Below are positions 41-3,771 of a stretch of DNA of 64,000 nucleotides, piece by piece (positions within the stretch are counted from its first letter, which is position 1; every line of letters starts with the position of its first letter). The translations under genes and the position numbers were made by a program. The notes below the pieces were generated by a model. That model did not search any database. It saw only the letters and a list, made by a program, of their open reading frames with translations, and had not been told where the DNA came from. The DNA is from Thermodesulfobacteriota bacterium (GTDB taxonomy: Bacteria; Desulfobacterota; Desulfarculia; JACQYL01), in the NCBI GenBank assembly GCA_963675595.2, contig CAXXLZ010000001.1:1344001-1408000 (forward strand), read 5' to 3'.

Positions 41-184
41 ATGACTTACTCGACATTGAAGGAAGCCGGGATTTCGACCCTTCGGGCCTTGGAAAAGAAG
101 CGGATTACCATCGACGCGCGGCTTTGGTGGTTCATGTTGGGCGGTAGCGTGGTGGGCTTGTTGATGTTGTGGGTAGGGAAATGA
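41..184 (+). CDS. Small phage protein with a C-terminal transmembrane segment (47 aa)
   Basis: Read by hand: MTYSTLKEAG...LWWFMLGGSVVGLLMLWVGK*. Upstream AAGGA; stop overlaps the MTase ATG (ATGA at 181-184). Confidence 0.6.
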   Translation: MTYSTLKEAGISTLRALEKKRITIDARLWWFMLGGSVVGLLMLWVGK

Positions 185-1317
185 TCCGAACCGCCCACTT
201 GTTCGCCGGTGCCGGGGGTGGAATTTACGCCGATTTAATCCTCGGGCACAAGCCCGTGCTGGCCGTCGAAAATAATCCGGAATGCTGCAAGATGCTTGAG
301 GAGCGAAAACGTGAAGGATGGTGGCCCGAGCTCGACATTCAATGCTGCGACATCCGAGAATTTGACTTCAGCCCCTGGGCCGGACGAGTGGATCAAATCG
401 CAGCGGGCTTCCCTTGCCAGGATATTTCGTATGCTGGAAGCGGTGATGGAATACGAGGATCACGAAGCGGCCTCGTCTGGGAGGTCTTCCGCGCAATCGA
501 CGCTATTCGACCTCGATGGGTTTTCCTCGAAAACAGCCCCGCAATACGGACCAAGGGACGGCGGGAAATCATTGCCGCCTTGGTGGAGAAAGGATATTCC
601 TGGCGAGACGGAACGCTTGCCGCGGCTCATGTCGGAGCGGGCCATCTCCGCAATCGCTGGTGGCTGCTTGCTGCCGACGCTCTGCGCCAGAGATCACAAA
701 AACAGCGGCGGCATGGTTTTAACGCCAAGAGGGCAGACGCGCCTGCCCACCGCATTAAAACATATGCTGCCCACGATCACGGCAAGCATGGAAACATGGG
801 CGGACTTTGTTCAGGCGCAATACCACAGCTCGAAGAGGCCGGATTATCAGATAGCGAAGCTACTCCCGACGCTGTTAGCATCAAGCGGGGGAAGAACTCT
901 TCCGCTAGGCACAACGATAACCGGTATGGCCCCGGATGGCAAAAAGCGGACGGTGGGATTGGACCAAGCCATCAAGATGTTGCCGACGCTGACCGCATCG
1001 GACGCCACGGGAGGATCCGGGACTTCGCCGAACCGGAAAGGCGGCCCGAATCTGCGGACGATGCTGCCGACTCTTTGCGCGACCGACTACAAATTGCCAT
1101 TCAACGAGGAGGGCTATCAGAGAGCGAGTCAAGAACGGTCGAGGCCGTTGCGCGATACACTGCCACATACTACTGGTCACCGCCTGACGCCGGGGTTCTG
1201 CGAGTGGTGGATGGGGTTCCCGCTCGGAGGCACCGCATACAGGCGTTAGGCAACGCCCAGGTGCCTCTACAAGCGGCCATGGCGTGGATATTGTTGATGA
1301 GGGGAGGAATCCATTGA
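181..1317 (+). CDS. DNA (cytosine-5) methyltransferase, catalytic 'alpha' polypeptide (motifs I-VIII and X; motif IX absent from this frame)
   Basis: Motif I HLFAGAGG, motif IV GFPCQDIS, motif VI LENSP, motif VIII HLRNRWW, motif X QALGNAQVP. Start placed at ATG 181 by coupling to the upstream stop. Confidence 0.92.
   Translation: MIRTAHLFAGAGGGIYADLILGHKPVLAVENNPECCKMLEERKREGWWPELDIQCCDIREFDFSPWAGRVDQIAAGFPCQDISYAGSGDGIRGSRSGLVWEVFRAIDAIRPRWVFLENSPAIRTKGRREIIAALVEKGYSWRDGTLAAAHVGAGHLRNRWWLLAADALRQRSQKQRRHGFNAKRADAPAHRIKTYAAHDHGKHGNMGGLCSGAIPQLEEAGLSDSEATPDAVSIKRGKNSSARHNDNRYGPGWQKADGGIGPSHQDVADADRIGRHGRIRDFAEPERRPESADDAADSLRDRLQIAIQRGGLSESESRTVEAVARYTATYYWSPPDAGVLRVVDGVPARRHRIQALGNAQVPLQAAMAWILLMRGGIH
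296..1249 (+). CDS. Nested alternative-frame 'beta' polypeptide of the C5-MTase (TRD-like repeats plus motif IX); true start uncertain
   Basis: 317-codon open +1 frame wholly inside the MTase gene. Ends in RLTPGFCEWWMGFP (motif IX-like) and has five (M/L)LPT(L/I)xA repeats. Same layout as the M.EcoHK31I alpha/beta pair. Confidence 0.8.
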   Translation: MRSENVKDGGPSSTFNAATSENLTSAPGPDEWIKSQRASLARIFRMLEAVMEYEDHEAASSGRSSAQSTLFDLDGFSSKTAPQYGPRDGGKSLPPWWRKDIPGETERLPRLMSERAISAIAGGCLLPTLCARDHKNSGGMVLTPRGQTRLPTALKHMLPTITASMETWADFVQAQYHSSKRPDYQIAKLLPTLLASSGGRTLPLGTTITGMAPDGKKRTVGLDQAIKMLPTLTASDATGGSGTSPNRKGGPNLRTMLPTLCATDYKLPFNEEGYQRASQERSRPLRDTLPHTTGHRLTPGFCEWWMGFPLGGTAYRR

Positions 1318-1358: not shown

Positions 1359-1706
1359 ATGAAAATGAACAGGCGCGAGTTTTTGGAGCTACTGGAAGAA
1401 ATCCACTTGGAACTGGTCAACCTGAACACCACAAAAGGCCACGACTACAGCGGCGATGAAAATGTTTTCTCGAACTTCATCCGCGCTGGAGAGCGTCGGG
1501 GCTTGGCCCCGGAAACCGTTCTCGGCGTCTATATGGACAAACATGAGGACGCCATCAACACCTACATCCGAGACGGCCAGGTGAAGTCCGAACCCATCGA
1601 GGGCAGAATCCTGGATTCCATCCTGTATCGGTGTTTGTTGTTGGGTATGGTTCGGGCCCTGCACAATTCGGCCGGCGTTGGCTTATCGGAAAAACCCATG
1701 CCATAG
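1359..1706 (+). CDS. Phage protein resembling nucleotide modification-associated domain 1 (DUF1599/MazG-like alpha-helical fold)
   Basis: Pattern KGHDYS...FSNF...DKH...EPIEGRILDSILY; GGAGG RBS before ATG 1359. Family assigned by recalled motif, not by search. Confidence 0.6.
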   Translation: MKMNRREFLELLEEIHLELVNLNTTKGHDYSGDENVFSNFIRAGERRGLAPETVLGVYMDKHEDAINTYIRDGQVKSEPIEGRILDSILYRCLLLGMVRALHNSAGVGLSEKPMP

Positions 1707-2386: not shown

Positions 2387-2766
2387 CGGCCCAAACAAAC
2401 GACGAAACTCTCGACTCCCTGGGTAAAAATCTGACCGCCGAACAGGTTGCGGCGCATTTCGGCTTGAAACCGAGATTTGTTCGTGAGCATTATGAGGCAT
2501 TCGGCGGTACGAGGATCTCGAAGCGTGTGCTCATTTTCCCCGAAAAGGAGGTTTATCGTGCCCTATCAATACACCACACCCAAGGGAGAGAAGAAATGGA
2601 AGGGACAGGTCGTCAAGGACGGTCGCCGCGTCGTTCAGACTTTCAAGACGAAGGCGAAGGCCGTGGAATGGGAGGTGCTGACGAAGAAGCTGATGGACGA
2701 CGGAGAAGAGCCGTTTACCGAAAACCGAGAGCGACAAAGGATCCGCACGGGATATTCTCTCGGTGA
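2383..2766 (+). CDS. Excisionase-like helix-turn-helix protein
   Basis: LTAEQVAAHFGLKPRFVRE wHTH-like motif directly upstream of, and overlapping, the integrase; similar to 59436-59759. Confidence 0.75.
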   Translation: MTAQTNDETLDSLGKNLTAEQVAAHFGLKPRFVREHYEAFGGTRISKRVLIFPEKEVYRALSIHHTQGREEMEGTGRQGRSPRRSDFQDEGEGRGMGGADEEADGRRRRAVYRKPRATKDPHGIFSR

Positions 2767-3676
2767 ATGGGCAACGGACTATCTGGACTACTTCCGAGAA
2801 CACGGCCGTGAAGCTACATACAAGGAGAAGCAGGCGGTGTTTCGGCACTTCTTCAAAACGTTCGACAAGGACATGCCTGTTCGGTCGCTGACCAAGAAAG
2901 ACGTGCTTCGCTACATGACGGTGCAACACAAAATCAGGACCGGTAACGCGGTGAACAAGGACGTGAGGAAGAACCTGAAGGCGGCTTTCAATTGGGCGAT
3001 TCGGTATGGAGTAATCGACCCTATGCCAAACCCGTTCGAAGTGGATCGCCTCCCCGAAGAGCGTCACGACCGGTATGTTCCCCCGGAGGCCGACTTCTGG
3101 AAGGTCTACCAGGTGGTTACCGGCCCGGCAGACCGGCTCTTACTGTTGGCCTACATCTACACCGGCGCCCGAAGGACGGAGCTCTTCACCCTTCGGTGGG
3201 TTGATGTGGATTTCGCCGGGAGCCGAATCAGGCTGTGGACCAACAAGCGAAAGGGTGCCCGAGAGTACGACTGGATTGAGATGCGCGAAACCCTGTTTAA
3301 CTCGCTGCTTGCGCACAAACAGGAAAGTCGTTCCGAATGGGTGTTTCCGAATCCGAAGACCGGGCTTCCATACACCGATCGTAAAAAGTGGTTGGCGGAA
3401 AGGTGCGCGGAAGCCAAGGTCCGCCCCTTCGGCTTCCACGCGATCAGGCATCTTACGGCGTCCATTCTGGCGTCGAATGGGGTGCCCGTGATCGCCATTC
3501 AAGAGATTCTTCGGCACCGGAATTCTCGGACGACCGAACGATACCTTCACAACCGGTTCGACATGCGATCCGCGTTGAAAGTCCTTGAGGGCGGAAAACC
3601 CCAGGAAGAACCCTCGAAAAACCCTCCAACCCAAACCGTAGGTACATACCCTCTAAGGGTATTGTCAAAAACTTGA
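2558..3676 (+). CDS. Tyrosine recombinase/phage integrase
   Basis: Catalytic motifs TGARRTE, FHAIRH, ILRH, TERY. AAGGAGG RBS before GTG 2558. Confidence 0.95.
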   Translation: MPYQYTTPKGEKKWKGQVVKDGRRVVQTFKTKAKAVEWEVLTKKLMDDGEEPFTENRERQRIRTGYSLGEWATDYLDYFREHGREATYKEKQAVFRHFFKTFDKDMPVRSLTKKDVLRYMTVQHKIRTGNAVNKDVRKNLKAAFNWAIRYGVIDPMPNPFEVDRLPEERHDRYVPPEADFWKVYQVVTGPADRLLLLAYIYTGARRTELFTLRWVDVDFAGSRIRLWTNKRKGAREYDWIEMRETLFNSLLAHKQESRSEWVFPNPKTGLPYTDRKKWLAERCAEAKVRPFGFHAIRHLTASILASNGVPVIAIQEILRHRNSRTTERYLHNRFDMRSALKVLEGGKPQEEPSKNPPTQTVGTYPLRVLSKT

Positions 3677-3693
3677 ACAATTTCAGTCTGTTA

Positions 3694-3771
3694 TGGCGGG
3701 AGCGACGAGACTCGAACTCGCGACTTCCGGCGTGACAGGCCGGCGTTCTGACCAAACTGAACTACGCCCCC
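3694..3771 (-). tRNA. tRNA-Asp (GTC)
   Basis: Cloverleaf: acceptor GGGGGCG/CGCTCCC, anticodon loop CTGTCAC, GTTCGAG T-loop, encoded CCA. Confidence 0.97.

Follow-up and report, generated by a model that had tools for sequence, protein, structure and literature searches.

A five-module array nested in a second reading frame, at the putative target-recognition position of a phage-type C5-cytosine methyltransferase gene

The target-recognition domains (TRDs) of C5-cytosine DNA methyltransferases (C5-MTases) contain a conserved Thr-Leu pair, and some of these enzymes are assembled from two chains. In the split M.AquI type, the two subunits are divided in the variable region, their genes overlap slightly and motif X resides on the beta subunit. 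Nested coding, with one chain encoded inside the other, has to our knowledge been published for one enzyme only. This enzyme, M.EcoHK31I (E. coli HK31, YGGCCR), has its beta chain encoded inside alpha in another frame; according to its description, both chains are needed for activity, alpha carries motifs I–VIII and X as well as the assigned TRD, beta carries motif IX, and internal Met codons also initiate translation (PMC2836561). In Bacillus-phage MTases, tandem TRDs confer multiple recognition sequences (PMC8936443). Here we analyze a gene at positions 181–1317 of a 64,000-nucleotide stretch of DNA from a Thermodesulfobacteriota bacterium (assembly GCA_963675595.2, contig CAXXLZ010000001.1, positions 1,344,001–1,408,000; hereafter the window), in which nested coding and tandem modules appear to be combined. 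The gene contains a long frame, alpha, and inside it a second frame, beta, which holds five tandem units marked by LPTLxA-like peptides. We tentatively read these units as the variable region at the target-recognition position of a two-chain, two-frame phage or prophage C5-MTase, where they would form a multispecific array. The features of the gene are as follows.

181..1317, plus strand: alpha open reading frame (ORF), frame 1, 378 amino acids; C5-MTase motifs I–VIII, a linker and a conserved C-terminus with motif X
239..1249, plus strand: beta open frame, +1 relative to alpha; stop codon TAG at 1247–1249; candidate starts GTG 311 and ATG 629
668..763, plus strand: module 1 (LLPTLCARDHKNSGG...LPTALKH), 32 codons; its core overlaps LLAADA, the segment of alpha that follows motif VIII
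764..859, plus strand: module 2 (MLPTITASMETWADFVQAQYHSSKRPDYQIAK), 32 codons; type E, whose 14 members include units of P0002 and P0009
860..976, plus strand: module 3 (LLPTLLASSGGRTLPLGTTITGMAPDGKKRTVGLDQAIK), 39 codons; type F
977..1060, plus strand: module 4 (MLPTLTASDATGGSGTSPNRKGGPNLRT), 28 codons; type C
1061..1195, plus strand: module 5, terminal (MLPTLCATDYKLPFNEEGYQ..RSRPLRDT..GHRLTPG); almost invariant across the family, and dual-coded with alpha
1196..1231, plus strand: motif-IX-like FCEWWMGFPLGG in the beta frame; beta ends in FCEWWMGFPLG
673..1050, plus strand: alpha-frame linker, the alpha reading of modules 1–4; unconserved, stop-free and predicted to be disordered
1051..1314, plus strand: conserved alpha C-terminus (RLQIA..GGLS..WSPPDAG..VVDG..RIQALGNAQVP..), with motif X at 1249–1266; overlaps beta module 5 and motif IX

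The parallel with M.EcoHK31I, drawn by description, is close: in the window, too, the beta ORF lies wholly inside alpha, with motifs I–VIII and X on alpha and motif IX on beta. There are two differences. The TRD of M.EcoHK31I is placed on alpha in that description (PMC2836561), whereas the variable region of the window is selected in the beta frame and its alpha reading is unconserved and predicted to be disordered. Moreover, the description of M.EcoHK31I mentions a single specificity but no module array, whereas the window has five modules. Compared with the M.AquI type, the window differs in that the whole of beta falls within alpha and motif X is back on alpha; a literature search on AquI-type overlaps returned nothing relevant. 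With the enzymes of temperate Bacillus phages (M.SPRI, M.Phi3TI, M.Rho11sI, M.H2I and M.SPBetaI) the window shares a phage-borne orphan gene and tandem units between motifs VIII and IX, the last of which abuts motif IX. Those enzymes, however, are single polypeptides read in one frame, whereas the family of the window uses two frames, shorter modules and an unfixed module order. The mtbP product of SPbeta contains ‘SPTLTTMGGG’, which resembles LPTLTASDATGG, followed by a second T-V unit and then motif IX; it is the one sequence that backs the Thr-Leu background here. What is new in the window is a shuffled module array in the nested frame, together with another frame selected only for openness; nested coding and tandem modules are each known.

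A relative in which the whole arrangement can be read in a single chain is gp66 of Mycobacterium phage DillTech15. Beta residues 14–200 align with gp66 residues 222–404 (31% identity over 193 amino acids, E 1e-10), and the aligned region of gp66 sits between HRRERVF (motif VIII) and GNGVCP (motif X) and contains four LLPTPxAxD units. The motif-IX-like FCEWWMGFPLG of beta aligns to FPEWMMGWPAG of gp66, which IIGNGVCP follows in frame. The window and gp66 are thus alike in having a homologous array and motif IX, and unlike in that gp66 is one in-frame chain. The same array, with four units, occurs in Gordonia phage Upyo on gp53, the second of two adjacent methylase genes; there the split between gp54 and gp53 is non-overlapping and not nested. 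By the gp66 alignment, the array occupies the target-recognition position of C5-MTases between motifs VIII and IX, in support of the original prediction, made from the letters of the window alone, that the units are TRD-like. At the level of motifs, FCEWWMGFPLG of beta would be motif IX and ALGNAQVP of alpha motif X, a region where the Pfam profile stops short. Beta residues E192, W193 and G196 do not vary among 124 sequences. Beta also matches the profile phrog_1008 (‘DNA methyltransferase’; E 1.2e-8, residues 111–200 to profile positions 192–277 of 329), and its homologues P0040 and P0009 match the same profile with E ~1e-23.

Alpha would supply the remainder of the enzyme. Its residues 3–170 match PF00145 (Pfam, E 6.2e-28) and residues 2–370 match phrog_363 (E 3e-51); the match to TIGR00675 (E 4.4e-20) is under the curated cut-off of that family. 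With phmmer, alpha residues 70–163 align to M.HhaI over GFPCQ, ENS and RNRWW, and a Foldseek search with the AlphaFold2 model of alpha retrieves M.HhaI, M.HaeIII and DNMT1 at E ~1e-10. Judged by its motifs I (FxGxGG), IV (PCQ), VI (ENV/ENS) and VIII (RxR), alpha is a C5-cytosine DNA methyltransferase. Its C-terminus matches the C-terminus of phrog_363 (E 3.1e-5, over the motif-X-like ALGNAQVP) and phrog_32758 (E 1.6e-5), and residues 292–327 are modeled as two helices with a predicted local distance difference test (pLDDT) score of 64–80.

In the DNA, the five units appear as in-phase LPT[LI]xA peptides of frame 2: LLPTLCARD at 668, MLPTITASM at 764, LLPTLLASS at 860, MLPTLTASD at 977 and MLPTLCATD at 1061. 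A repeat search recovered a single family of five 14-nucleotide copies at 669, 765, 861, 978 and 1062 (100, 86, 79, 86 and 86% identical to copy 1), with core spacings of 96, 96, 117 and 84 base pairs, each divisible by 3. Frame 1 is open over 169..1317 and frame 2 over 296..1249 (stop to stop, 239..1246). These peptides, positions, multiple-of-3 spacings and two open frames had all been pointed out in the original prediction, and both the reading frames and the repeat search confirm them. The longest exact match between two cores is ~10 nucleotides (TGCCGACGCT, copies 1 and 4), and Tandem Repeats Finder returned no rows for the array. Because the DNA likeness is limited to a short core and Tandem Repeats Finder is blank, the units are not recent DNA duplicates. 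There is no window-wide enrichment of the core: CTGCCGACGCT with at most two mismatches has 27 matches in the 64 kb versus 21.5 expected, a number reached by 13 of 100 shuffles. Seven of the 27 fall inside 671–1074, and the only four matches with at most one mismatch (at 671, 863, 980 and 1064) are all module cores.

Comparison with related loci reveals which frame is under selection in each part of the gene. Five of these loci came from named genomes (Oryzomonas, Sterolibacterium, Azoarcus, Zoogloea and a Puniceicoccaceae metagenome-assembled genome) and 28 from viral contigs; a single-sequence scan of the viral contigs confirmed 0 of 6 candidate stretches, and an alignment query then gave the 28. 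In all 19 distinct complete loci, motifs I, IV, VI, VIII and X lie in one unbroken frame, with the LPTL units and AEWWMGWP in the +1 frame. Identities by region, in amino acids (aa) and by codon position, are as follows.

Catalytic domain (15 loci): alpha aa 0.68, beta aa 0.27; the free position is alpha position 3, at 0.48 (positions 1 and 2, 0.73 and 0.80)
Interior modules, four types (3–7 loci per type): alpha aa 0.25–0.31, beta aa 0.67–0.70; the free position is beta position 3, at 0.33–0.42
Terminal module and motif IX (15–16 loci): alpha aa 0.58–0.61, beta aa 0.68–0.69; no free position (beta position 3, 0.66–0.67)

Selection acts on the catalytic domain in alpha only, and on the interior modules it is purifying and confined to beta. 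For the type of module 1, which occupies interior positions in L003, L004, L010, L014, L015 and L018, the identities are 0.68 for beta amino acids, 0.35 for beta position 3 and 0.25 for alpha amino acids; the corresponding values are 0.67, 0.42 and 0.31 for type F (module 3, five loci) and 0.70, 0.35 and 0.28 for type C (module 4). Alpha position 3 in the interior modules, which is beta position 2, is 0.76–0.80 identical. Module 5 behaves in another way (beta amino acids 0.69, alpha amino acids 0.61, beta position 3 0.67), and its alignment A4 over 16 loci has a mean column identity of 80% and 20 invariant columns. Over ~190 nucleotides, where alpha 1051–1314 lies over beta 1061–1249, both readings are conserved and the coding is truly dual. 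One gene therefore displays two kinds of overlap, with selection on one frame plus openness of the other in the interior modules and selection on two frames in the last 190 nucleotides. A conserved beta N-terminal domain upstream of the modules was also considered and was rejected, as beta amino-acid identity there is 0.27 and the alpha wobble position is free (0.48).

With these values, the earlier suggestion that the units are genuine nested-frame coding modules is upheld. The opposing idea, that the units have no function and are a by-product of out-of-frame reading of a repetitive alpha linker or decaying remnants, is very improbable. It would fit with the lack of any match of beta, the frame 2 ORF, in Pfam and NCBIfam and with the poorly folded model of beta, but the beta-type codon pattern, with position 3 free and position 2 preserved, and the homology to in-frame gp66 contradict it. 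In addition, 505 cluster representatives match beta at E<=1e-3 in an exhaustive search, and homologous modules are read in frame in annotated phage methylases.

Across the module region, alpha has no stop codon in any of the 19 loci, a count whose members share descent and are not independent, though their module sets differ. Synonymous shuffles of the beta codons introduce a mean of 1.5–4.2 alpha stops, with zero stops in 0.7–16% of shuffles per locus, and the third frame contains 3–10 stops over the same region. Across the interior modules, the alpha frame is selected merely for the absence of stops. The alpha linker is variable in length among relatives (alignment A3), and AlphaFold2, which models the N-domain of alpha confidently, assigns a pLDDT of 31–35 to residues 179–287, the alpha reading of modules 1–4. 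Low alpha identity, freedom from stops and low model confidence all agree with the view put forward in the original prediction that alpha tolerates the array as a disordered linker.

A different use of the two frames would be synthesis of one polypeptide by two programmed frameshifts, a +1 shift once motif VIII has been read and a −1 shift ahead of motif X, with the long overlapping frames being incidental. Reading alpha to ~672, beta to ~1235 and then alpha again would reproduce the motif order of DillTech15 gp66, and the conserved beta ATG lacks a convincing Shine-Dalgarno (SD) sequence. Nevertheless, we regard this mechanism as improbable. Because a shifting ribosome needs no open alpha frame over the modules, the stop-free alpha reading of this unconserved region in every locus, set against the shuffles, argues against it, as does conservation of both readings in the last 190 nucleotides. 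Inspection by eye of 660–675 and 1225–1245 reveals neither a slippery heptamer nor a shift-prone stop, and the beta-frame ATG is kept in 16 of 19 loci. Moreover, M.EcoHK31I, which has been studied experimentally, makes two chains (PMC2836561).

If two chains are made, beta has two candidate starts. GTG 311 has GAGGAG at 298–303 upstream, at a suitable distance, and the 312-residue product of the gene caller (P0001) begins there. Of the 19 loci, 16 have an ATG equivalent to ATG 629, and 38 of 59 anchored homologues have Met there. An SD sequence plus start for beta at one consistent position was not found across 18 loci. The beta frame is open for at least 335 nucleotides upstream of the modules in every locus listed; over the catalytic domain of alpha (239–667), it contains no stop in 12 of 19 loci, one stop in 6 of 19 and two stops in 1 of 19. 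Many homologues start with, for example, WIASQRDSLARIF, the +1 reading of D.IAAGFPCQDIS.

How the modules are used depends on how freely they vary. Module statistics were compiled for 124 homologues with a recognizable motif IX, drawn from 231 proteins, by taking as units the P-T-[LIVMPF] occurrences before motif IX. Proteins contain from one to seven modules (one in 5 proteins, two in 40, three in 25, four in 33, five in 13, six in 4 and seven in 4), with a modal unit spacing of 29–33 residues and a median module length of 31 residues (interquartile range 29–34). TRDs are said by Trautner et al. (1996) to span roughly 40–50 residues. Clustering of 409 modules gave 22 recurring types and 97 singletons, arranged in 78 distinct architectures; the window reads A-E-F-C-A and P0002 reads B-F-E-A-A. 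Seven pairs of types are seen in both orders, and adjacent units of the same cluster occur in four proteins. The original prediction had proposed a comparison of module number and order among homologues and had named an invariant number as a refuting result; the number proved not to be invariant. Loci with catalytic domains 75–91% identical have different module sets, and one clade of a maximum-likelihood tree of the catalytic domain (support 89/90) holds six architectures. Module sets turn over faster than the catalytic domain.

Not every position in the array is equally free. The first unit is of type B in 63 of 124 proteins, and the last contains RSKPLRDT in 68 of 124. The notion of a cassette-like array, which was part of the original prediction, holds for the interior modules and fails for the first and last units, the terminal one being near-invariant and dual-coded with the conserved C-terminus of alpha. 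Within a module, PTL(T/C)A is followed by a Gly-rich or polar loop and then by a short predicted helix at the end; in the AlphaFold2 model of beta, pLDDT reaches 89–93 only in residues 91–110, which belong to module 3.

Several observations weigh against a multispecific array. Module 5 is near-invariant and might alone dock at the active site, just two modules make up the commonest architecture (B-A, 24 of 124 proteins), and the modules are short. The AlphaFold2 model of beta alone is poor (pLDDT 64, predicted template-modeling score 0.33). BLASTP of beta against M.SPBetaI (mtbP) has a best E of 2.4, so that beta is not significantly similar to this proven multispecific enzyme; the resemblance to TRDs of Bacillus phages that had been noted from the sequence stands at the level of motif and architecture and fails at the level of sequence. 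Searches of PDB sequences with beta (phmmer) and with a profile of module 5 and motif IX, and of PDB structures with the beta model (Foldseek), produced nothing meaningful. Because there is no significant homology to a proven multispecific enzyme or a solved structure, equating the modules with the Thr-Leu loop of TRDs draws on motif resemblance and position. In gp66, Pfam does not model the module and motif-IX region either; ATG 629 has no good SD sequence; and the shared descent of the 19 loci belongs on the same side of the balance.

Many of these observations would be expected if the units instead composed a single recognition domain, serving as structural or DNA-clamping repeats in an enzyme with one, or one very short, target motif. 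Only the invariant terminal unit would then dock, and module number would tune affinity, reach or processivity. The near-invariance of the terminal module and motif IX, the frequency of type B as first module, the prevalence of the two-module form, the lack of similarity to proven multispecific TRDs, and modules that are short and each end in a predicted helix, as in repeat proteins, all favor such a domain. Yet we consider it rather unlikely. The module types are discrete, each with 67–70% amino-acid identity across hosts of different phyla, and a cooperative single domain would be expected to tolerate poorly both the reversal of order in seven type pairs and the 78 architectures found in 124 proteins. 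Moreover, the window wholly lacks the type-B unit that is common in first position.

We return, then, to a multispecific array as our favored, if tentative, reading. Both chains would be translated and would assemble as in M.EcoHK31I, with beta (the modules and motif IX) supplying the small domain in trans to alpha (motifs I–VIII and X). The unconserved stretch of alpha could flexibly tether motif VIII to motif X. In every module, PTL(T/C)A, the Gly-rich loop and the short helix would together be the counterpart of the Thr-Leu recognition loop in a C5-MTase TRD, and the array would thereby give the enzyme several recognition units that can stand in for one another, as in the multispecific methylases of Bacillus phages. 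Phage DNA, whether incoming or induced, could in this way be protected from several restriction systems. Because the units are whole numbers of codons, insertions and deletions from unit to unit or at microhomologies would keep both frames open, and the region could therefore evolve freely.

More broadly, and with greater doubt, the locus could represent a large unannotated family of phage methylases in which combinatorial recognition modules of ~30 residues, carried in a dual-coded gene, are reshuffled by short-homology recombination to give specificities re-programmable against host restriction. On that view, enzymes of the M.EcoHK31I type could likewise carry their TRD on beta instead of alpha. 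If each module does set its own target, the family would constitute a natural plug-and-play DNA-recognition system in cytosine methylases, with a bearing on phage escape from restriction, on the reading of phage methylomes and on the engineering of targeted methyltransferases. A search of open-access PMC and bioRxiv texts found no literature on methylases with LPT(L/P) repeats. When beta was used as query in a word-indexed search, 124 proteins were returned, of which 120 were listed; PF00145 is present in only 3 of the 120 listed homologues and 117 have no Pfam domain. Because annotation pipelines settle on one frame, phage methylases of a widespread class would be left half-annotated. The nearest clusters in the ESM Atlas are labeled ‘hypothetical protein’.

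How modules are gained and lost is partly visible among close relatives. L030 and L029, two viral-contig loci with N-domains 91% identical, differ by a 48-nucleotide in-frame deletion between two GGGGAT repeats (L029:670-870, L030:720-870), which in L030 joins a type-B module to the module that follows. The original prediction had placed recombination at the conserved cores. This is not borne out, given the short exact identity between cores and the use by this one clear deletion of a different, 6-nucleotide microhomology. In the source samples, a second contig ~85% alike (versus window 401–1193) has 339 nucleotides where the window has 462, and is thus shorter by 123 nucleotides, or 41 codons. 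This second contig (runs X1–X3) extends to 46 kb in X2, at a depth of 49, compared with 11 for the contig of the window. No module-number variant is seen in the source contig, which is identical to the window (three runs of one study, Logan contigs); because contigs cannot reveal rare variants, this identity says nothing about heterogeneity in the population.

The array is also found outside the nested arrangement. Three non-nested layouts were seen (P0107; L035:838-2181; L036:924-2193): in frame in P0107, where motif X is not in frame; fully in frame in DillTech15 gp66; and in the adjacent split genes gp54/gp53 of Upyo. P0002 and P0028 are single ORFs in which the reading changes from alpha to beta, ahead of motif VI in P0002 and of motif VIII in P0028, with loss of those motifs; they are likely to be frameshifted copies or assembly errors. 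Elsewhere, tblastn of beta against plasmids found none, blastn of the gene against 5,426 complete E. coli genomes gave no DNA match, and the profile of module 5 and motif IX (alignment A4) had a match in 0 of 40 related genomes.

The gene sits in an integrated phage-like element. Three features lie downstream.

1359..1706: small ORF just downstream of the methylase gene; phrog_6802 (unknown function), E 7.4e-12
2477..3676, plus strand: tyrosine integrase; phrog_1, E 2.4e-56
3694..3771, minus strand: tRNA-Asp (GTC), called by ARAGORN, directly beyond the integrase gene

The integrase and tRNA-Asp genes (2477..3771) mark the end of this element, which probably attached at the tRNA-Asp gene. A restriction endonuclease gene is not evident beside the methylase. 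Upstream of it lie genes for an Ant anti-repressor, a primase and an exonuclease V/Dda-like helicase.

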